From the IMG/VR virus record IMGVR_UViG_3300045988_134023, positions 1-16,118 of that record: a stretch of DNA of 16,118 nt. One strand, given 5' to 3'. This document shows positions 1 to 8,571 of this stretch, piece after piece. Every line of letters starts with the position of its first letter. Position 1 is the stretch's first letter. The position numbers were made by a program, and so were the translations under genes. This DNA comes from a virus. A model generated the notes under the pieces. That model worked only from the letters and a program-made list of their open reading frames with translations. It made no database searches and was not told the origin of the DNA.

Positions 1-146
1 CCCCCAGAAATCTGTCCTATCTTATCTGCATAGCTTCTAAAGGTATCGGAATCTGATACAGCAACACCTTTAGCTACAATAGCATCTTTAATGGCACTCT
101 TAGTACCTTCAAGATACGTTAATTTATCAGAAATTGTATTTGCCAT
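1..146 (-). CDS. Tail-fibre-like structural protein, N-terminal 48 codons only; the gene runs off the window start
   Basis: ATG at 144-146 lies 1 nt after the HNH stop (148-150). Hand translation MANTISDKLTYLEGTKSAIKDAIVAKGVAVSDSDTFRSYADKIGQISG stays open to position 3. The function call is from position in the fibre cluster only. Confidence 0.5.
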   Translation of the reverse strand, partial: MANTISDKLTYLEGTKSAIKDAIVAKGVAVSDSDTFRSYADKIGQISG

Positions 147-147
147 A

Positions 148-669
148 TTAGATATATTTAAATTTTACCCCTTTATAAGTGTCTGTTCTTCCTTTAAGAC
201 AATCTATAACTCTACTATGAGTATACCCATCTATTGATGTTTCAATTGCATTTTTATATGTTTTAACTAGTAAATCATTAATAAATAGCCCTACAGGTTT
301 ACTAATTTTATCAATACATCTATTTATTCTAGTTCCATATGTATTATTATACTTTGCATCACATCATTCTAAATTTTCTACCCTATTATCTGTCTTATTT
401 TCATTTATATGGTTAACATATGGTAGATTGTCAGGATTTGGAATAAATGCTTCTGCTACTAGTCTGTGAACTTTAATAGCTTTAGGTTTATCTAAGCCAG
501 ATACTAGAATTACATAATTATAGCCATATTTATCTATATGCTGTTTTAGCTTTTTATGTATTTGTTTTCTGGTTCTTCCAATAGAATCTTTAAAAGTCAA
601 TGGGTTACTATATACATCTCCTGTAGAAGATACACTATAGTTAGGATAATTTGTTAATACTCTATTCAT
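148..669 (-). CDS. HNH homing endonuclease (NUMOD4-like N-terminus, HNH_3-like core, C-terminal DNA-binding tail), read through one in-frame TGA at 364-366
   Basis: The track ORF 364..696 ends ...[16 protein letters not shown] at a TGA. Continuing in the same frame gives [72 protein letters not shown], ending at TAA 148-150. The N-terminus [14 protein letters not shown] and the motif [12 protein letters not shown]...[16 protein letters not shown][W] are classic for phage HNH endonucleases. The likely start is ATG 667-669 ([11 protein letters not shown]); ATG 682-684 or TTG 694-696 are alternatives. Confidence 0.8.
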
Positions 670-1201
670 TTGGAATTTCACCATTAATTGTATCAAGAGT
701 AGTTGAGATAGTTCCGATTTGTGCCTGTAAAGCTTGAATAGCAGCTTCTAATTCTGAAACCTTAGTATTATATACTTCTAATGTTACATAATTAGATAGT
801 TCCGATTTGTCTGCTTTATTTGCATCTAATGTCCCAACTTCCTTATCTAATGCATCAATCTTTAGTCCATCCTCTTCTTGCTTACTTTCAATAGCTGTAA
901 TCTTAGAAGAATTGTTTCCAACTTCTCCTTTAAGATTAGTAATCTCAGTATTAATTGGAACAAGTTTAGCATCTATAGATTGATCTACTAAAAGGGGAAC
1001 TTGCTCTTCAATACTTTCTGTTACTTTAGTATCAATTAACTCTTCTGCTTTCTCTTCAGAAATGTAATTACCTTTAGGTTGGAATCTTTCATCTGCTTCA
1101 ATCTTAGTATAAGAACCAACAGGAAGTTGTCCAGATTCAATACCACATTTCTTACTTACATAGAAGGTCTGAGTATTCTTAGTATTCTTTAATATAATCA
1201 T
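662..1201 (-). CDS. Coiled-coil tail fibre or fibre-shaft protein (179 aa)
   Basis: ORF from ATG 1199-1201 to TAG 662-664. It has heptad-like segments ([23 protein letters not shown]). It shares the motif KQEEDG-x-KID-x-LDKE (839-883) with the 540-aa fibre (3228-3272). Confidence 0.6.
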
Positions 1202-1203
1202 CG

Positions 1204-1440
1204 TTATTTAACTTTTATTGATTCTTCATACTCTTTTGAAGCTGTTTTAGCAGTTTCTTTATATTCAGAATCCTGCTCTAATGTTATCTCTCTTAAATGT
1301 TCTAAATCACAATTTAATGGACAAATACACTCTTTAAATGAGTTATACCCTTTAATATCCATTTCGTCTTTATAGTTAGTAAGAAGCATATTATCTTCAG
1401 GTTTAACTACTTTATACTTTTCTTTAATTTCAATTTTCAT
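1204..1440 (-). CDS. Small protein (78 aa), paralog of 3995..4210; possibly a fibre assembly or accessory factor
   Basis: ATG-to-TAA ORF packed between a repeat protein and a fibre gene. It shares the pattern L/I-T-x-Y-(4)-IK-x-Y-x-x-F-(4)-CPL with the 3995..4210 product. The function is an inference from position only. Confidence 0.55.
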   Translation of the reverse strand: MKIEIKEKYKVVKPEDNMLLTNYKDEMDIKGYNSFKECICPLNCDLEHLREITLEQDSEYKETAKTASKEYEESIKVK

Positions 1441-1447
1441 AGTGTAT

Positions 1448-2365
1448 TTAATTAGAATATGATATTGTTCATCCTTTAGAAACTATCTGGGCTTTTTGAT
1501 CTTCAGTTAAAGAGTCAAAGATTACTTTATTAAAAACAATAGTAGGATTCTTAGATGCGTCTGAATATAGTCCTTCTATTATATTATTTATAGATTGAAC
1601 AGTAAGTGCAGGTAATCCTCCTAAATGCAATGTATATGTACTCATAGTGACTCCCTTCCCAATATTTGTAAAACCTCCAATATCTGTAAGTAGGGTGAAA
1701 TCTTTAGATTCTTGATCTCTCTCATCATCAGTTCTGAATAAATCAGAAAAATTACTCCAGTTACTTGCATCATATTGCGGAACAGATTGAAGCCTATAAC
1801 AGTACCTAAACATTTGATAAACAGTAACTTTTTTAGTTGAAGAAAAAGTTATCTGAGGTGCTGTTTTTAATTGTTCTGAATATCTAAATAATCCAGTACA
1901 ATCTACAGCATTAGATAGATCTAATGGATCTATTTCTGTAGCTCCAATTCCAGATAAGGCACCATACATCCTCTTTTTACCAATAAAAATATCAGGTAAT
2001 ATATATGTTAAACTACGACATCCAGCAAATAAATAATACAAATCAGTATCTGTATTTTCAGTAATATATTTTTGAGCATCTATAGATGTAGTTAACTGAT
2101 ACTGTAATGATGAATCTGCTCTAAATATAGAAGTTTTTGGGTTAGATGAAGTAGGATTTATATATCAACTAATAACATCTGGATTATTACATTCTGTAAT
2201 TATTGAATTTACACTTCCTAAATATTGTCTTGCAACTGCTTTACGAAAAGTATCATCTATAAATGGAATTGGAGGACAAGGCCAGACTTTGGTACTGCCA
2301 ACATAAATAGCAGTACCTTGTCTGTTACCTACATAAAAAGCTTTTAAATTATCTCGAATATTCAT
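1448..2365 (-). CDS. Receptor-binding or tail-fibre candidate (305 aa) with C-terminal ~26-residue F-x-x-C-x-x-L surface-protein repeats (DUF285/BspA-like class), read through TGAs at 2165-2167 and 1469-1471
   Basis: Track ORFs 2165..2365 and 1469..2041 are in the same frame (2365 and 2041 are both 1 mod 3). I translated 2042-2164 and found no TAA or TAG. Reading past TGA 1469 adds TISYSN, then TAA 1448-1450. Repeats include LFAGCRSLTYI, LDLSNAVDCTGLFRYSEQL and QMFRYCYRLQSVPQYDASNWSNFSDLF. The C-terminus LTEDQKAQIVSKG[TGA]TIS parallels LTDEQKEIATNKNWILA of 4210..5220. Confidence 0.7.
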
Positions 2366-2366
2366 A

Positions 2367-3989
2367 TTACTCTACAATTAAATATTGAGTATTTGGATCT
2401 TTACTTGAAATAGCATCATATTCAGATTGAGTTACCACAAGAATAGTATGAACTTGTGGTTGAGTTCCACTTCCATAAGTAACTGGATTAGAAACGCTCT
2501 CAATATCTATATTTCCACTACCTAACAAGCTTTCTCCATTAACTGTCTTGATATTTGTTCCACTAACTAAAGTATCTTGTTTATTTCCTAATCCTGCATT
2601 TAATTCAGTTTCCGTAACATATTCATCAGGAATAGAAGTTAAAAATCCACTATCATTAGTAAGCTCAGATGTCTTAGTTGGTATACCTAAATCTGATAAA
2701 CTCTTATTGCCAGATAACTCAACAGAATTAATCTGAGGTTTATTTGTTAACTGAGTATAGTCAGTAGTCCCTCCAGATATTTCAAGATTACCTTCTCCTA
2801 AAATACTTTCACCATTAATAGTCTTTATATTAGTCTCAGAGACTAGTTCCTCTTGATACCTATGATAACTAGTATCTACTGATACTCCAGTTGGAGTAAT
2901 AGTAGTTAGAATTACAGTATGATTAGCTGTAATACTTTCAAAATGGAAAGTAGCTTGAATACTTTCTCCTGAAGCAAAACATACTTCTGGAGTAGATACA
3001 TCATTATAACCTAGAATACCTACATAATAAAGCTCATATGGTGCGTTATTAAGTATAGCATTCTTAACAGCAGCGAAATCTCCACAAAGAGGAATAGTGG
3101 AATTTATAAATAGAAATGGAATATTAGAACCACTTTTAATTTCTATATTACCTTTTCCAAGTAAAGACTGACTATTGATTGTTTTGATATTAGTTCCACT
3201 TACAAGTAAATCTTGCTTAGTAGCCATCTCTTTATCAAGTGAATCAATCTTATTTCCATCTTCTTCTTGCTTTGTTTTAATAATTGATATGTCTGAAGTA
3301 TTAGTTGCTACTTGAGTAGATAAAGATTCTACCACAGAAGAATCAGCTTTACCAGCAAGTTCTGTTTTTGTTGCATAATCTCCTACAGGCTGTTTAGTAG
3401 CAAGCTGCTCATCAACATAAGTCTTATCTGCTTTACCTGCTAAATCTCCAGAAACCTCTGCTTCAGTTACAAAGTTAGAATCATTAGTAAGCTCACTAAC
3501 TTTAGTTGGAATATCACTCTTTAAAGCATAATCTCCTTTATCTTGTTTTAGATCTATTTTTCCTTCTAAAGAAGTTTCTAATGTATTAACCTTATCATTA
3601 GTTGCATAAGTAGATAAATCTACAGATAATTGAGTCTTATCTTCATTAAAAGCTAATGGAGCTTGAGGAGCAAATACTCCTTGTTTTTCCTCAAGTTTGG
3701 CATCTACTTCTTCTTTAGTTGGATAGTCAATAAGTTTCTCTGTAATTTGATTGTCAACATCTTCAATAGAAGGAATTCCTAATTCTTTAGAAGGAATATT
3801 CCCATTTAATTCAACCCCATTGATTTCAGGCTTAAATTGAAGATCTTGATAGTTACTTGATCCTAACTGAGAACCATCCATAACCTTTACCTCATCATCT
3901 TTATCTATTACTAGAACCTTAGTAACATTTGACTTATCAATTGTATCTACTTCTAATACATTTAGGTAAGGCAGAATAGTATTTTCCAT
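2367..3989 (-). CDS. Tail fibre protein (540 aa) with repeated fibre motifs
   Basis: ATG-to-TAA ORF. It has three copies of LVS-G/E-TNIKT-I/V-N-x-x-S-L/I-LG-x-GN-I/L-E/D-I. It has two copies of Y-x-x-L-x-x-KP-x-IN-x-VEL-x-GN...LGIP followed by SELTNDS-x-F. The C-terminal ILVVTQSEYDAISSKDPNTQYLIVE motif is typical of phage fibres. It contains no Trp codon of either kind. Confidence 0.75.
   Translation of the reverse strand: MENTILPYLNVLEVDTIDKSNVTKVLVIDKDDEVKVMDGSQLGSSNYQDLQFKPEINGVELNGNIPSKELGIPSIEDVDNQITEKLIDYPTKEEVDAKLEEKQGVFAPQAPLAFNEDKTQLSVDLSTYATNDKVNTLETSLEGKIDLKQDKGDYALKSDIPTKVSELTNDSNFVTEAEVSGDLAGKADKTYVDEQLATKQPVGDYATKTELAGKADSSVVESLSTQVATNTSDISIIKTKQEEDGNKIDSLDKEMATKQDLLVSGTNIKTINSQSLLGKGNIEIKSGSNIPFLFINSTIPLCGDFAAVKNAILNNAPYELYYVGILGYNDVSTPEVCFASGESIQATFHFESITANHTVILTTITPTGVSVDTSYHRYQEELVSETNIKTINGESILGEGNLEISGGTTDYTQLTNKPQINSVELSGNKSLSDLGIPTKTSELTNDSGFLTSIPDEYVTETELNAGLGNKQDTLVSGTNIKTVNGESLLGSGNIDIESVSNPVTYGSGTQPQVHTILVVTQSEYDAISSKDPNTQYLIVE
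2502..3209 (-). repeat. Three diverged copies of a 24-aa fibre motif (2502-2573, 2778-2849, 3138-3209); copies 1 and 2 bracket a 96-aa insert domain (2850-3137)
   Basis: Residues 261-284, 381-404 and 473-496 of the 540-aa protein, with coordinates computed from the ORF start at 3989. The copies are conserved at protein level and only loosely at DNA level. Confidence 0.7.
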
Positions 3990-3994
3990 ATTGT

Positions 3995-4210
3995 TTATTT
4001 TTTAATTAATTCTTTATCTTTTAAGTATGACTTATGCGTTAATTCATCAACAATATAATACTTATTAACATTAATAGTTAAAGGACAATACATTATTGTA
4101 AATGCACAATAGTCTTTAATATTAGATCCATCATACTTTGTAATATAATACCCTTCATCTGATGTAAGTATAATGAATTTATCAGTTTTATTAATATGTA
4201 AATGTTCCAT
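3995..4210 (-). CDS. Small protein (71 aa), paralog of 1204..1440; possibly a fibre assembly or accessory factor
   Basis: ATG 4208-4210 overlaps the upstream TAA (4210-4212) as TAATG. MEHLHINKTDKFIILTSDEGYYITKYDGSNIKDYCAFTIMYCPL... carries the same Y-x-IK-x-Y-x-x-F-x4-CPL pattern as the 78-aa protein. The track's TTG start at 4225 is less likely. Confidence 0.55.
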   Translation of the reverse strand: MEHLHINKTDKFIILTSDEGYYITKYDGSNIKDYCAFTIMYCPLTINVNKYYIVDELTHKSYLKDKELIKK

Positions 4211-5220
4211 TATGCTAGTATCCAATTTTTATTAGTTGCAATTTCTTTTTGTTCATCTGTTAGTTTTGCAAGATTTGCAGATCCAATTGTTTGTGTTTTT
4301 TCTACTTGCCCTGTTAAATCTACTAATGCATTTATTACTGACATTAATGAATCTACTGTTATTCTAGTACTACTAGTACCTCCTAAATTTAAATCAACAT
4401 CTAATGTTCCAGTTAATGTAATATCTTTAATATTATAGCAACTGCCAAACATATTCTCTGCTTCCGTCAATGCACTTAAATCAGACGAAAAGACCTCTAA
4501 TCCTGAACAAAATAAGAACATACTTGATCCTATATTTAATGAAGATAATGTTTTATCAAATGTTTTTAATTCTGAAGAAGCACATTTATAACTTCCATCA
4601 GTCAATGATTCCCATCCTACAATATTATCAGGAACACTATTCTGTTGATAATATGCTAAACTTACTCCTGGATTTTCAATACTTTGTTGTATATAAACTT
4701 GTACTGTTAGTTTCTTCATTGCATCATAACCTGATGAAGGAGTATATTGTTGAGGTCCATCTGAGCTTACAAAAAGACTTCTAGTAACATTATCTTCTAT
4801 ATTATATGTAGGAACATTAACAATTACGTCACACATCTCTATATAATCATATCCATCTCCAGGAATGATAGTAGTAGTTCCATTTTCAGTAATAGTAACC
4901 TGTTTATTATCCTCAACTGGTATTTCTACATCAACTTCAACTCTTGATAAGCCAGAATATCCTTCATCAGGAGTTACTTCTGTCATTGATACATTTTTGT
5001 CTATTGAAATGTGCTTATCTTGTAATGGAACTACTACATCAACAGATACATTTACCTTAGACATTCCATCATATCCCTCATCTGGCAGTACTTCAAACTC
5101 TGCATTCTGTGCATATTCTACAGATTTTTCTTGTAATTTACATTCAGCAGCTTTAATTAAATCTAAATTTTTAGTTGTAGTATTTTTAGCTACTGGTTCT
5201 GATGTGAATACTATTGCCAT
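4210..5220 (-). CDS. Receptor-binding or tail-fibre candidate (336 aa): N-terminal 4x P-x-x-GY-D/S repeats plus C-terminal MF-x-x-C-x-x-L (DUF285/BspA-like) repeats
   Basis: ATG-to-TAA ORF. C-terminal repeats are SSMFLFCSGLEVFSSDLSALTEAENMFGSCYNIKDI. The C-terminus KLTDEQKEIATNKNWILA is paralogous to that of 1448..2365. Confidence 0.65.
   Translation of the reverse strand: MAIVFTSEPVAKNTTTKNLDLIKAAECKLQEKSVEYAQNAEFEVLPDEGYDGMSKVNVSVDVVVPLQDKHISIDKNVSMTEVTPDEGYSGLSRVEVDVEIPVEDNKQVTITENGTTTIIPGDGYDYIEMCDVIVNVPTYNIEDNVTRSLFVSSDGPQQYTPSSGYDAMKKLTVQVYIQQSIENPGVSLAYYQQNSVPDNIVGWESLTDGSYKCASSELKTFDKTLSSLNIGSSMFLFCSGLEVFSSDLSALTEAENMFGSCYNIKDITLTGTLDVDLNLGGTSSTRITVDSLMSVINALVDLTGQVEKTQTIGSANLAKLTDEQKEIATNKNWILA
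4690..5100 (-). repeat. Four tandem, diverged ~38-aa-period repeats within the 336-aa protein
   Basis: The repeats are EFEVLPDEGYDGMSKVNVSVDV (41-62), MTEVTPDEGYSGLSRVEVDVEI (79-100), TTIIPGDGYDYIEMCDVIVNVP (116-137) and QQYTPSSGYDAMKKLTVQVYI (157-177). Confidence 0.65.
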
Positions 5221-5261
5221 ATTATTTTTCTATAAAATATAAATTATTCATTATGTGGTAT

Positions 5262-5301
5262 ATAAACAAAATAAGGGGCAAGTAAATTAATACTCGCCCC
5301 T
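5262..5301 (-). terminator. Rho-independent terminator downstream of the tail-tube-like gene
   Basis: The minus-strand transcript reads AGGGGCGAG-(10-nt loop)-CTTGCCCCT. The stem is plus 5274-5282 against 5293-5301, with 8 of 9 positions paired. It is followed by TATTTTGTTTAT and lies 11 nt after the TAA at 5312-5314. It is the only GC-rich hairpin in an AT-rich spacer. Confidence 0.7.
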
Positions 5302-5311
5302 CTTTCTGTTA

Positions 5312-6783: not shown

Positions 6784-7353
6784 TTATAAAATTTTAAATA
6801 ATAATTGTTTGTGAGTTTTTGATCTTCCAGCTATTACATTATCAATAGCTTTCGGATTAAATCCATCTAGTTTTAATTCGTTTCTCGTTTTATACATTTT
6901 AATTAATTTTCCGTCTAAAGAATAACAACCAATGTTATAGTCTTTATGCCAATTAGAGCCAACTCTTGATTTAGAGATTTGAGCTTTAGATACTTCTGTA
7001 TGATGTCTGCCATAAAAAGGATTTTTCTCTCCAGAGTGATTATGACCTTGTCTTTTTCCTCCTTTTAATCCTCCAGGTTCTTGATTCATACATAACGGAT
7101 CTGTTTTTCATAAATCTCCAACTCAATAAGCTTCCCTTTCAGCATTTTCTTCTTTAGAAGCATTCAGTTCAATTATTGTTTTACGGTATGTACCAACTGT
7201 TCCGTATTTATCGAAAAAAGATTTACAAAACCGACCACTGCCTCTATAAGCCTTATCATTTTCTGGCTTATAATTAACTGTTCGTTTTCCTATATAATAT
7301 TTGCCAATATGTTTTGGATGTAGGAAGTCGATTTTATAAATATAATGATACAT
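6784..7353 (-). CDS. GIY-YIG homing endonuclease with NUMOD3-type linker and C-terminal DNA-binding domain (189 aa), read through TGAs at 7123-7125 and 7108-7110
   Basis: Track ORFs 7123..7353 (YHYIYKIDF...KYYIGKR...RGSGRF...AEREAY) and 6784..7089 (GEKNPFYGRHHTEVSKAQISKS...) are in the same frame (7353 and 7089 are both 0 mod 3). The junction translates ...EREAY[TGA]VGDL[TGA]KTDPLCMNQEPGG with no TAA or TAG. Its ATG overlaps the scaffold TAA as TAATG (7351-7355). Confidence 0.85.
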
Positions 7354-7976
7354 TACCCAATAAAGTTCTTAAGTTTCTTATCAATCGTAGGATCTCCACT
7401 AGAAACAAAAGATTTATCTTCTAAACCTTTTTCAAGTGTTTCCTCTGCTGAAAAAGCAGCACTCATCTTACTCATCTTTTCAACCGTCTTTTCTGTAGCT
7501 TCAGATTTACCCTCTAATTCAGCTACTTTCTTAACAAGCTTATCAACAATGTCATAAAGCTCATTAATTTCGCGATGAATAGCGTCGATTGCATCAGTCT
7601 CAGTTTCTTTAACACCGTCTGTTTCAACAGCAGGATCAGCAACTTCCTCAGCTTTTACTCTCTTAGCTCCACAAGCAGCATCAACCTCAACAGTTCTCAT
7701 ACCCTCATCTGGATCAACTTCAGCTTTAGGATCAGTAATGGATTCTACTTTACCGTCTTTAACAACAATAGTTTTGCCATCCTCGGTAATATACTCACCA
7801 TCAGCAGCAGGTGCATATTCGCCAGTATCAGTATCCATTGTATATACACTCATACCTGCCCTTAGATCCTCATCCTCACTACCATCGTAAGTTAGAACTC
7901 CAGCACTAGTCTTAACATCGTTAAATTTTGCTAAGAGTTTACTAAGTTCGATTCTCAGTTTAGTTAATTTGTTCAT
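7353..7976 (-). CDS. Capsid scaffolding protein (207 aa)
   Basis: Highly acidic protein with helical and coiled-coil termini (MNKLTKLRIELSKLLAKF..., ...INELYDIVDKLVKKVAELEGK). It sits between the protease and capsid genes and contains no Trp. Confidence 0.65.
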   Translation of the reverse strand: MNKLTKLRIELSKLLAKFNDVKTSAGVLTYDGSEDEDLRAGMSVYTMDTDTGEYAPAADGEYITEDGKTIVVKDGKVESITDPKAEVDPDEGMRTVEVDAACGAKRVKAEEVADPAVETDGVKETETDAIDAIHREINELYDIVDKLVKKVAELEGKSEATEKTVEKMSKMSAAFSAEETLEKGLEDKSFVSSGDPTIDKKLKNFIG

Positions 7977-8571
7977 ACTTAAATTTAAAATTTTTATGAT
8001 AGTTTTGTTTATTTTTGCAACATTTTATAATAGCACTATGATCAAAATTTCCGTTTCTTTCAGCGTCCATAGCAGATTTCCAAGTGCATATATAAGTATC
8101 ATTAATATCTGTCATAATTATACGTTTACTTACTTTTTCTTTCTGCTGTTCAGTTTGTTTAGTTCCCAATCTACATTCTCTTAACTTTAATTTTGTTTCA
8201 TCCTTTAATACTCTTCCAGACTGTTTTAAAGACATTTTGTGTTTAGATTCTTCACTGTGTTTAAATCCAGTATTAGAACCTCCACCTTCATTTAAATTAT
8301 AACCATTATTTAATGTATCAAATAACTGAATATATTTAATTTCTGCATTATTTAGTTGTCTTTTCAATAATTCTGTAGAAGAACAACAAAAGATTTGAAG
8401 AATTTCCCATTTAAAGTTATTGAATCCATATTTCCTAATCGCTCTATGAAAATATGTAAGATTAGAACTGTATTTATGTTCATTCTTTCTTCTCAAGAAA
8501 TTATTTGTTTGTCCTACATATTTATTGCCATTTATAAGATTTGTTGCTAGATATATAACTCCACTATACAT
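7960..8571 (-). CDS. GIY-YIG homing endonuclease (203 aa) with NUMOD3-like repeats and a C-terminal DNA-binding domain
   Basis: Motifs are GVIYLATNLINGNKYVGQT...RRKNEHKY...AIRKYG...AEIKYIQLFDTLNNGYNLNEGGG, then GFKHSEESKHKMS and the tail ...SAIIKCCKNKQNYHKNFKFKY. The ATG is 1 nt after the protease TAG. The 3' end overlaps the scaffold start by 17 nt. It has no TGA codon. Confidence 0.85.
   Translation of the reverse strand: MYSGVIYLATNLINGNKYVGQTNNFLRRKNEHKYSSNLTYFHRAIRKYGFNNFKWEILQIFCCSSTELLKRQLNNAEIKYIQLFDTLNNGYNLNEGGGSNTGFKHSEESKHKMSLKQSGRVLKDETKLKLRECRLGTKQTEQQKEKVSKRIIMTDINDTYICTWKSAMDAERNGNFDHSAIIKCCKNKQNYHKNFKFKYEQIN

Follow-up and report, generated by a model that had tools for sequence, protein, structure and literature searches.

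The stretch of DNA considered here, IMG/VR virus record IMGVR_UViG_3300045988_134023, is 16,118 bases long, which is the full record of this genome, and we refer to it as the window. Its positions 1..5302 hold an array of genes in which a repeat protein, a small protein with a 'CPL' motif and a fibre follow one another twice, ahead of a third repeat protein that is truncated by the contig end. The three gene pairs are true paralogs standing in the same order twice, and the unit gained and lost among related phages consists of two genes, the first repeat protein and the first small protein, rather than the set of repeat protein, small protein and fibre. We regard the array as probably a host-adsorption module, a multi-protein apparatus of private docking segments with exchangeable leucine-rich repeat (LRR) heads of the DUF285/BspA type and fibres. 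The genes and features are as follows, with lengths in amino acids (aa).

rep1, 4210..5220, minus strand: repeat protein, 336 aa
sm1, 3995..4210, minus strand: small 'CPL' protein, 71 aa
fib1, 2367..3989, minus strand: long fibre, 540 aa
rep2, 1448..2365, minus strand: repeat protein, 305 aa, with TGA read as Trp at codons 67 and 299
sm2, 1204..1440, minus strand: small 'CPL' protein, 78 aa
fib2, 662..1201, minus strand: short coiled-coil fibre or whisker, 179 aa
rep3 start, 1..146, minus strand: first 48 codons (MANTISDKLTYLEG...), the putative N-terminal adaptor of a third LRR protein
HNH homing-endonuclease gene, 148..696, minus strand: inserted between fib2 and rep3, overlapping the 3′ end of fib2
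Terminator-like hairpin, 5273..5302, minus strand: 12 pairs, 6 of them G-C, with a T-run, between the gene for a 174-aa tube-like protein and rep1

The array genes are closely packed, with gaps of 1-7 nt or a one-base overlap, as where the start of sm1 overlaps the stop of rep1 (TAATG). The hairpin, whose sequence is kept in relatives, forms the upstream boundary.

Paralogy and its extent

An earlier note on this DNA had proposed that each pair is paralogous, in the same order, and that the copies are strongly diverged, and both points hold. Pairwise BLASTP finds 27% identity between rep1 and rep2 over the C-terminal 60 aa (E 0.026), 26% between sm1 and sm2 over 46 aa (E 1e-4) and 33% between fib1 and fib2 over 105 aa (E 4e-9). 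When families are compared as profiles (hhalign, with family alignments built from relatives), rep1 matches rep2 at 98.7% (E 4.5e-16, 143 columns), sm1 matches sm2 at 97.2% (E 4.5e-11, 59 columns) and fib2 matches fib1 at 97.1% (E 6.2e-11, in two collinear blocks), while rep3 matches both rep1 (99.4%, E 4e-21, 247 columns) and rep2 (99.2%, E 1.3e-19, 133 columns). BLAST chains through relatives give the same links, from rep1 to the rep1 of L017 (E 2e-55), on to the rep3 of L034 (1.5e-11) and from there to rep2 (2.8e-14), and from sm1 to sm2 by way of a pair with 47% identity. With the pairwise and profile alignments of all three pairs now run, the similarity is beyond chance. The motifs that had been quoted for the three pairs are all present, with the amendment that the one in the small proteins needs a one-residue indel (Y-x4-IK in sm1, Y-x5-IK in sm2).

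What does not stand is homology over whole genes. Among rep1, rep2 and rep3 it is confined to the C-terminal 130-250 columns, which comprise the LRR head and a cap (C-cap), and in the fibres to two collinear blocks of the shaft; the N-terminal segments of rep1, rep2, rep3, fib1 and fib2 are mutually unrelated, and each is specific to its position in the array. At the DNA level, an 85-nt repeat (840-924 versus 3229-3313) underlies the shared fibre motif. We considered recent gene conversion as its source and rejected it: the DNA is just 73% identical over the 85 nt, yet 13 of 15 motif residues are identical, and the shared segment is therefore old. In a tree of the repeat proteins, the C-terminal domains group by gene position, which fits old paralogs.

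Gene gain and loss among relatives

Twenty-eight loci cover the whole interval, and 26 close loci plus the window make up the 27 genomes used for tree mapping. Complete loci have a common core of fib1, rep2, a small-protein gene, fib2, in some cases the HNH gene, and rep3, with a 130-aa gene and then the portal gene next in line. Across the 28 loci rep1 is present in 14 and absent from 13, the remaining one (L038) being arranged differently; 12 of the 13 that lack rep1 also lack sm1, and fib1 is kept in all of them. The presence of sm1 tracks that of rep1 in all but two loci. Scored as a pair, rep1 and sm1 are found in 14/27 genomes and missing from 13/27, and on a tree of capsid plus tube DNA this distribution takes at least 10 changes, at least 6 of which are forced by well-supported branches. 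In the extreme case, the capsid and tube DNA of L007, which has the pair, is identical to that of L035, which does not. The same 14 nt, AAATAATATGGCAA, occur at the start of rep1 and at the start of fib1 and thus flank rep1+sm1, so that recombination between the two copies of AAATAATATGGCAA would result in exact removal or insertion of the pair; TAATATGGCAA also precedes rep3.

The earlier suggestion that modules are exchanged between relatives is therefore borne out, since rep1+sm1 comes and goes, but the triplet as a single unit is not: the indel unit is rep1+sm1, and the fibre motif is found in 7/27 short fibres. A third unit had been thought to begin at 1..146, and one does begin there, in the form of 48 residues of rep3. 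The translation of bases 1..146, MANTISDKLTYLEGTKSAIKDAIVAKGVAVSDSDTFRSYADKIGQISG, matches the N-terminus of the third repeat protein in relatives. That unit is a lone repeat protein, with neither a small protein nor a fibre, and leads directly to the 130-aa gene and the portal gene. In more distant capsid relatives (45-56% identity), the portal gene sits right behind the tube-like gene and LRR genes are found elsewhere.

Invariant ends and variable bodies

The comparison of N-terminal segments draws on some 40 relatives with genomes of 30 kb. Over their first 30-48 residues, rep1, rep2, rep3, fib1 and fib2 are each 86-100% identical in close relatives and 48-75% in more distant ones. In bins of 25 columns, identity in these segments is 90-97% for rep2, rep3 and fib2, 61-88% for rep1 and 69-83% for fib1; it is mostly 15-50% in the middles of the three repeat proteins (near 0 in rep1 where allele lengths differ), and it is back up to 53-85% in their C-caps. 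Mean pairwise identity across 24 genomes is 93% for the capsid and 48% for rep2, with a minimum of 24%, and one relative encodes a 373-aa protein that has only its first 32 residues and the C-cap in common with rep2 of the window.

The segments also occur on other bodies. In L037 the fib2 anchor heads a protein made of GYDG repeats and an LRR, and in L005 a rep3 body is fused to fib2 residues 1-44. The 50-residue anchor of rep3 recurs at 60-98% identity (mostly at least 71%) in 328 protein clusters of 183-566 aa, many of them with DUF285 or LRR_5. In a separate observation, L017 (15094-15452) has a 40-aa rep2 stub that contains little beyond the anchor, together with a 75-aa fib2 of anchor and short coiled coil. 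Both of these short open reading frames are intact, at 63-66% identity to their full-length counterparts, which hints at a possible structural need for the docking pieces by themselves. An invariant N-terminus followed by a variable distal part is the signature of receptor-binding proteins (RBPs), in which case the N-terminal segments would be the parts that dock. The AlphaFold2 model of rep2 has a predicted local distance difference test score (pLDDT) of 88 overall and of 49-59 over the first 30 residues, and this low value would fit a segment that folds on a partner.

The repeat proteins

The rep1 protein consists of an N-terminal segment (about residues 1-30), GYDG beta repeats, a degenerate LRR head of the BspA/DUF285 type and a C-cap at residues 277-336 (nt 4213..4392). 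Its beta repeats ('P-D-x-G-Y-D-G..V.V.V') number four, of about 45 residues each, and differ in copy number among alleles. In rep2 an N-terminal anchor (residues 1-30, nt 2276..2365) is followed by an LRR-like body and by a C-cap at residues 246-305 (nt 1451..1630). The C-cap is conserved and is common to rep1-3, and rep1 and rep2 share a C-terminal LT(D/E)(E/D)QK...W motif.

MFxxC or LFxxC repeats are seen in rep1 and rep2, as tandem repeats of about 24-26 residues with an (M/L)FxxCxxL core, present in only 2-3 degenerate copies in each protein: SSMFLFCSGLEVF and ENMFGSCYNIKDI in rep1, and YLFAGCRSLTYI, GLFRYSEQLKTA and QMFRYCYRLQSV in rep2. Eight of ten members of the rep1 family match LRR_5 at E <= 0.001 (best 1.2e-15). 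The rep2 protein is 39-41% identical, across 99% of its length, to two proteins that both carry PF03382 (P0009 and P0010), the second of which also has PF13306; an L037 homolog of the repeat proteins scores 114 bits on DUF285; and one rep2 homolog in nr is titled 'MAG TPA: protein of unknown function DUF285 [Caudoviricetes sp.]'. Judged by sequence, rep1 and rep2 of the window are short, degenerate members of the BspA/DUF285-type LRR group. The rep2 model has short strands every 24-30 residues. A sequence search of solved structures with the rep3 profile returned nothing meaningful, the PHROGs label for related families is 'unknown function', and in the literature we found no direct precedent for DUF285 or BspA LRR proteins as phage receptor-binding proteins.

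The fibres and the HNH insertion

The longer fibre, fib1, has an N-terminal anchor (residues 1-45), a coiled-coil shaft that includes the KQEEDGNKIDSLDKE block (nt 3228..3272) and a C-terminal tip, and it contains three 'SGTNIKTINGESLLGxGNI' motifs. The tip is Phage_tail_C (PF24243; residues 515-539, nt 2373..2447), at 38.9 bits against a cut-off of 23.7, and the protein matches phrog_1197, 'tail protein', at E 1.4e-5; a sequence search of solved structures with fib1 gave nothing meaningful. At 540 aa the window copy is the shortest full-length allele seen (relatives have 669-870 aa, some at least 1164 aa), and about 260-330 residues of proximal shaft are missing from it.

The shorter fibre, fib2, also has an N-terminal anchor of residues 1-45 and a block of the KQEEDGxKIDxLDKE type (nt 839..883), is nearly all coiled coil and has no tip domain. 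The KQEEDG block is present in 28/37 long fibres and in only 7/27 short ones. Short fibres are mosaics of optional segments, one of which is missing in the window copy and matches fib1 at about residues 100-133; the window copy is without a 51-aa segment that most relatives have. A weak match of fib2 to phrog_1056, of the T4 fibritin type (E 6e-4), may be driven by composition.

The HNH gene lies outside the apparatus but sets the C-terminus of fib2, whose end it overlaps (window 640-710). Across L001-L040, fib2 ends in ...GEIPNE in 13/13 loci with the HNH insert and in ...GEVI in 10/12 without it, and the HNH gene thus appears to alter the 3′ end of fib2. Two loci (L027 and L032) have IPNE and a 20-nt spacer with no HNH gene; these ends could be the footprint of HNH loss or a pre-insertion allele.

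The small proteins

Neither sm1 nor sm2 has a match in Pfam or PHROG. The AlphaFold2 model of sm2 (pLDDT 91) has five strands and a C-terminal helix; Foldseek found no significant fold match for the small-protein model in the PDB (best E 0.9), and its sole matches in BFVD are uncharacterised small proteins of uncultured phages, at template-modelling (TM) scores of 0.55-0.67. With a full HMMER search the family grows to 291 clusters at E <= 1e-3 (113 of them at E <= 1e-10), and almost every member is a stand-alone protein of 65-100 aa. A DNA-pattern scan of viral contigs for the small protein recovered the close clade only, and a hidden Markov model of the protein detected no copy in L041-L058 and L089-L102, which are capsid relatives at a greater distance. 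Within the 'CPL' motif the Pro is near-invariant and the Cys is not, and a metal or redox role is therefore unlikely, as far as the residues can tell.

The association of the small-protein gene with LRR and fibre genes is conserved and the gene order is not. In smaller relatives of the same phage type (L103, L107, L108 and L109), the tube-like gene is followed by the small-protein gene, a 75-aa gene and a DUF285/LRR gene; L103 has two LRR genes after the 75-aa gene, both with the same C-cap, and in L109 an 89-aa gene and then the portal gene are downstream of the DUF285/LRR gene. On a contig of 84-178 kb the neighbours of the small-protein gene are a Phage_fiber_rpt gene and a fibre of 1633 aa, and a DUF285 gene lies 3 kb upstream. 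The conserved gene of roughly 75 aa between the small-protein and LRR genes of distant relatives (L103:6267-6494, L038:14107-14346) is beta-rich and is missing from the window's clade. Another relative bears a deletion scar, at L033:12300-12542, where rep1 was lost apart from its first seven codons (MAIKFTT), now joined to the small protein, and sm1 was kept.

Genetic code and genome layout

The six genes lie at the coordinates assigned to them earlier, all on the minus strand, which carries all of the long genes of the window, and all of these need TGA to be read as Trp. Code 4 was adopted for calling open reading frames, since table 11 breaks rep2 and several tail genes: rep2, the tape-measure-like gene and the 1118-aa gene are broken under table 11 and all three are open under table 4. 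Under table 11 rep2 is in two pieces; it is continuous only with TGA as Trp. Across relatives TGA and TGG swap at the same Trp positions of rep2: codon 67 is TGA in the window and TGG in L014 and L030, codon 203 is TGG in the window and TGA in those two, and codon 299, which specifies the Trp of the KGW motif at the C-terminal end, is TGA in the window and TGG in L016 and L018. The related phages L103 and L107-L109, of about 22-30 kb and with the same capsid, tube, small-protein, LRR and portal layout, have gene calls that are contiguous in their source pipelines, a hint that TGA recoding may not be common to the whole lineage.

Read along the coding strand, the window encodes a 223-aa protein, an 1118-aa protein, an 896-aa tape-measure-like protein, an XkdF-type protease, a GIY-YIG endonuclease, a scaffold, a second GIY-YIG endonuclease, a capsid and the 174-aa tube-like protein, and then rep1, sm1, fib1, rep2, sm2, fib2, the HNH endonuclease and the start of rep3. 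Three homing-endonuclease genes thus stand between structural genes, two GIY-YIG (6784-7353 and 7960-8571) and one HNH (148-696), and their presence is variable among relatives.

A search with the capsid found 58 related viral contigs, whose genomes measure about 30 kb and most of which come from IMG sample 3300045988. Deposited phage genomes gave no megablast match to the window. Capsid relatives in GTDB genomes are mostly on short contigs in bins of mixed taxonomy, and the only integrated ones are distant (28-34% identity), in Bacteroidota chromosomes. One IMG/VR contig of 148,631 bp (L028, also G001) has a copy of this phage at one end. It was considered as a host chromosome and rejected as such, since its DNA is phage-like throughout; the assembly may have joined the 30-kb phage to a larger one as a chimera.

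Discussion

That the region is a host-recognition module, as the earlier note had it, is almost certain. The more specific proposal, which builds on the homologies described above and on the patterns of conservation, gene flux and gene context, is that a tailed phage of about 30 kb with TGA as Trp would carry an adsorption module between the tube-like gene and the portal gene, after the terminator-like hairpin. Its five large proteins (rep1, fib1, rep2, fib2 and rep3) would follow one plan, an N-terminal segment, a spacer and a variable distal part. The private N-terminal segment would be the docking piece, attaching each protein to its own site on the tail or to a neighbouring protein; the spacers would be Ig-like GYDG repeats, coiled coil or a Gly linker; and the distal part would be a BspA/DUF285-type LRR head with the C-cap in rep1-3, a tip domain in fib1 and coiled coil only in fib2. 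The LRR heads, as the fastest-evolving parts, would be the receptor-binding surfaces, and sm1 would move with rep1 as a two-gene accessory module. Old duplication or the re-use of modules would account for the paralogy, and later recombination would have taken place at short sequences conserved at gene starts. The context favours a tail module, with tape-measure-like, protease, scaffold, capsid and portal genes around the array and the Phage_tail_C tip on fib1. For the small proteins, we infer a part as assembly helper or small adaptor for the LRR or fibre proteins.

Several results pull the other way. The window's own repeat proteins fall below the Pfam cut-offs (rep1 at 15.8 bits on LRR_5, PF13306, against 27.7; rep2 at 14.8 bits on DUF285, PF03382, against 25), and the top Foldseek matches of the rep2 model in the PDB, although they are LRR proteins (SDS22, 4ezg, 4h09), are insignificant (E >= 0.12, TM <= 0.30). 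The small proteins show no sequence or fold match to known chaperone or adaptor families. The order of small-protein and LRR genes depends on lineage, the small one coming after the LRR gene in the window and before it in L103 and L107-109; the identity of sm2 covaries alike with rep2 (rho 0.45) and fib2 (rho 0.41), which does not pick out a single partner; and there are loci with a repeat protein and no neighbouring small protein (L011, L029) as well as loci that keep the small protein without the repeat protein (L033, L034). The anchor role of the N-terminal segments is suggested by their conservation, and we likewise infer the virion location of these proteins, their binding to the host and the role of the small ones.

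Taken literally, the earlier note points to an old tandem duplication, in which one three-gene cassette of repeat protein, small protein and fibre was duplicated here and diverged in place, so that the triplet would be the unit of evolution and of function. The paralogs in the same order, with all three pairs homologous, are what such an event would leave. The grouping of the repeat-protein C-terminal domains by position is as expected of old paralogs inherited vertically, and the distant relatives L037 and L038 carry fewer units. However, the N-terminal segments of the paralogs are unrelated, fib1 is always retained when rep1+sm1 is gained or lost, the third unit has neither of the other two partners, and the fibre motif is scarce among the short fibres. 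Moreover, in a tree of the wider family (79 columns, poorly resolved) sm1 and sm2 do not pair with each other but are interspersed with proteins from other phages, and the corresponding trio in L103 and L107-109 is small protein, 75-aa gene and LRR gene, with no fibre. An event in situ is possible, and separate acquisition of related modules fits equally; the cassette account with the triplet as its unit is, in our judgement, unlikely. A quite different idea, which we consider very improbable, is that the LRR and small proteins are non-virion accessory proteins, morons among the structural genes that serve superinfection exclusion, modification of the host surface or counter-defence. BspA/DUF285 proteins are best known as bacterial surface adhesins (according to the Pfam descriptions), rep1+sm1 does act like an accessory moron, and the unassigned PHROGs families would suit such a role. 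Against this, inspection of the LRR proteins by eye (no predictor was used) shows no N-terminal hydrophobic leader, signal peptide or lipobox, and the genes are tightly packed and apparently translationally coupled with the fibre genes, by the short gaps and one-base overlap. An invariant N-terminus with a hypervariable head is typical of receptor-binding proteins, the fib2 anchor is able to carry an LRR body, and the rep3 adaptor is re-used on hundreds of LRR proteins in phage-sized contigs.

To return to the adsorption module, familiar modular receptor-binding loci of phages pair a conserved anchor at the N-terminus with a distal domain that can be exchanged, and they include branched systems with several receptor-binding proteins; the tailspike sets of CBA120 and G7C, the multi-depolymerase Klebsiella phages and T4 gp37/gp38 are examples. 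The array resembles these in having adsorption proteins side by side, with invariant N-termini and hypervariable distal domains, and in the exchange of whole modules between near-identical phages at short conserved boundaries. It differs in that the distal parts are BspA/DUF285-type LRR solenoids with a common C-cap, not beta-helix tailspikes or tips of the gp37 type, and in its five distinct private anchors and small partner of 70-90 aa beside the LRR genes; moreover, the window's array is known from its genes alone. With the bacterial surface proteins of the BspA-type LRR (PF13306) and DUF285 (PF03382) kind it shares the repeat type (MFxxCxxL, about 24-26 residues), and relatives of rep1-3 pass both Pfam models; here, however, the proteins are phage-encoded, with phage-specific N-terminal adaptors and no signal peptide or lipobox visible, and the window copies have few, degenerate repeats that stay under the cut-offs. 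T4 fibritin (wac) whiskers (PHROG 1056) are like fib2, which is short and almost pure coiled coil, but fib2 is without a foldon-like C-terminal domain. In DUF7941 proteins of the chimallivirus Goslar, carbohydrate-binding, hydrolase or LRR domains come after a docking module at the N-terminus (bioRxiv 10.64898/2026.04.21.720040). The likeness to our array is one of design, a common N-terminal attachment module bearing varied host-recognition domains, LRRs among them; the Goslar adaptor is unrelated, much larger and from a jumbo genome, whereas here each gene position has its own short adaptor. In kind, then, the array is the familiar mix-and-match evolution of phage fibres. In the literature and in PHROGs we found no characterisation of three of its components, namely the DUF285/BspA LRR heads on private adaptors, the shared C-cap and the widespread small partner protein.

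A bolder version of the adsorption module, which we think quite improbable as it stands, would make the small 'CPL' proteins a new class of dedicated coupling or assembly factor that uses the private adaptors to fix monomeric LRR adhesins of the DUF285/BspA type to tail sites or trimeric fibres, so that gut phages would gain a combinatorial, branched adsorption organelle with heads swapped at gene-start microhomologies. If this were true, the 291-cluster small-protein family and the 328-cluster rep3 adaptor would mark a widespread, undescribed RBP system.

For uncultured gut phages, sequence mostly fails to reveal which hosts they infect, and an array like this one separates the fixed parts (docking segments and C-cap) from the free parts (LRR heads and fibre segments). 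A two-gene module of repeat protein and small protein moves between otherwise identical phages, and a widespread small-protein family and a re-used 50-residue adaptor are now tied to LRR proteins of the DUF285/BspA type. They offer concrete help in annotating the receptor-binding genes of recoded gut phages and in selecting constructs to test for binding.

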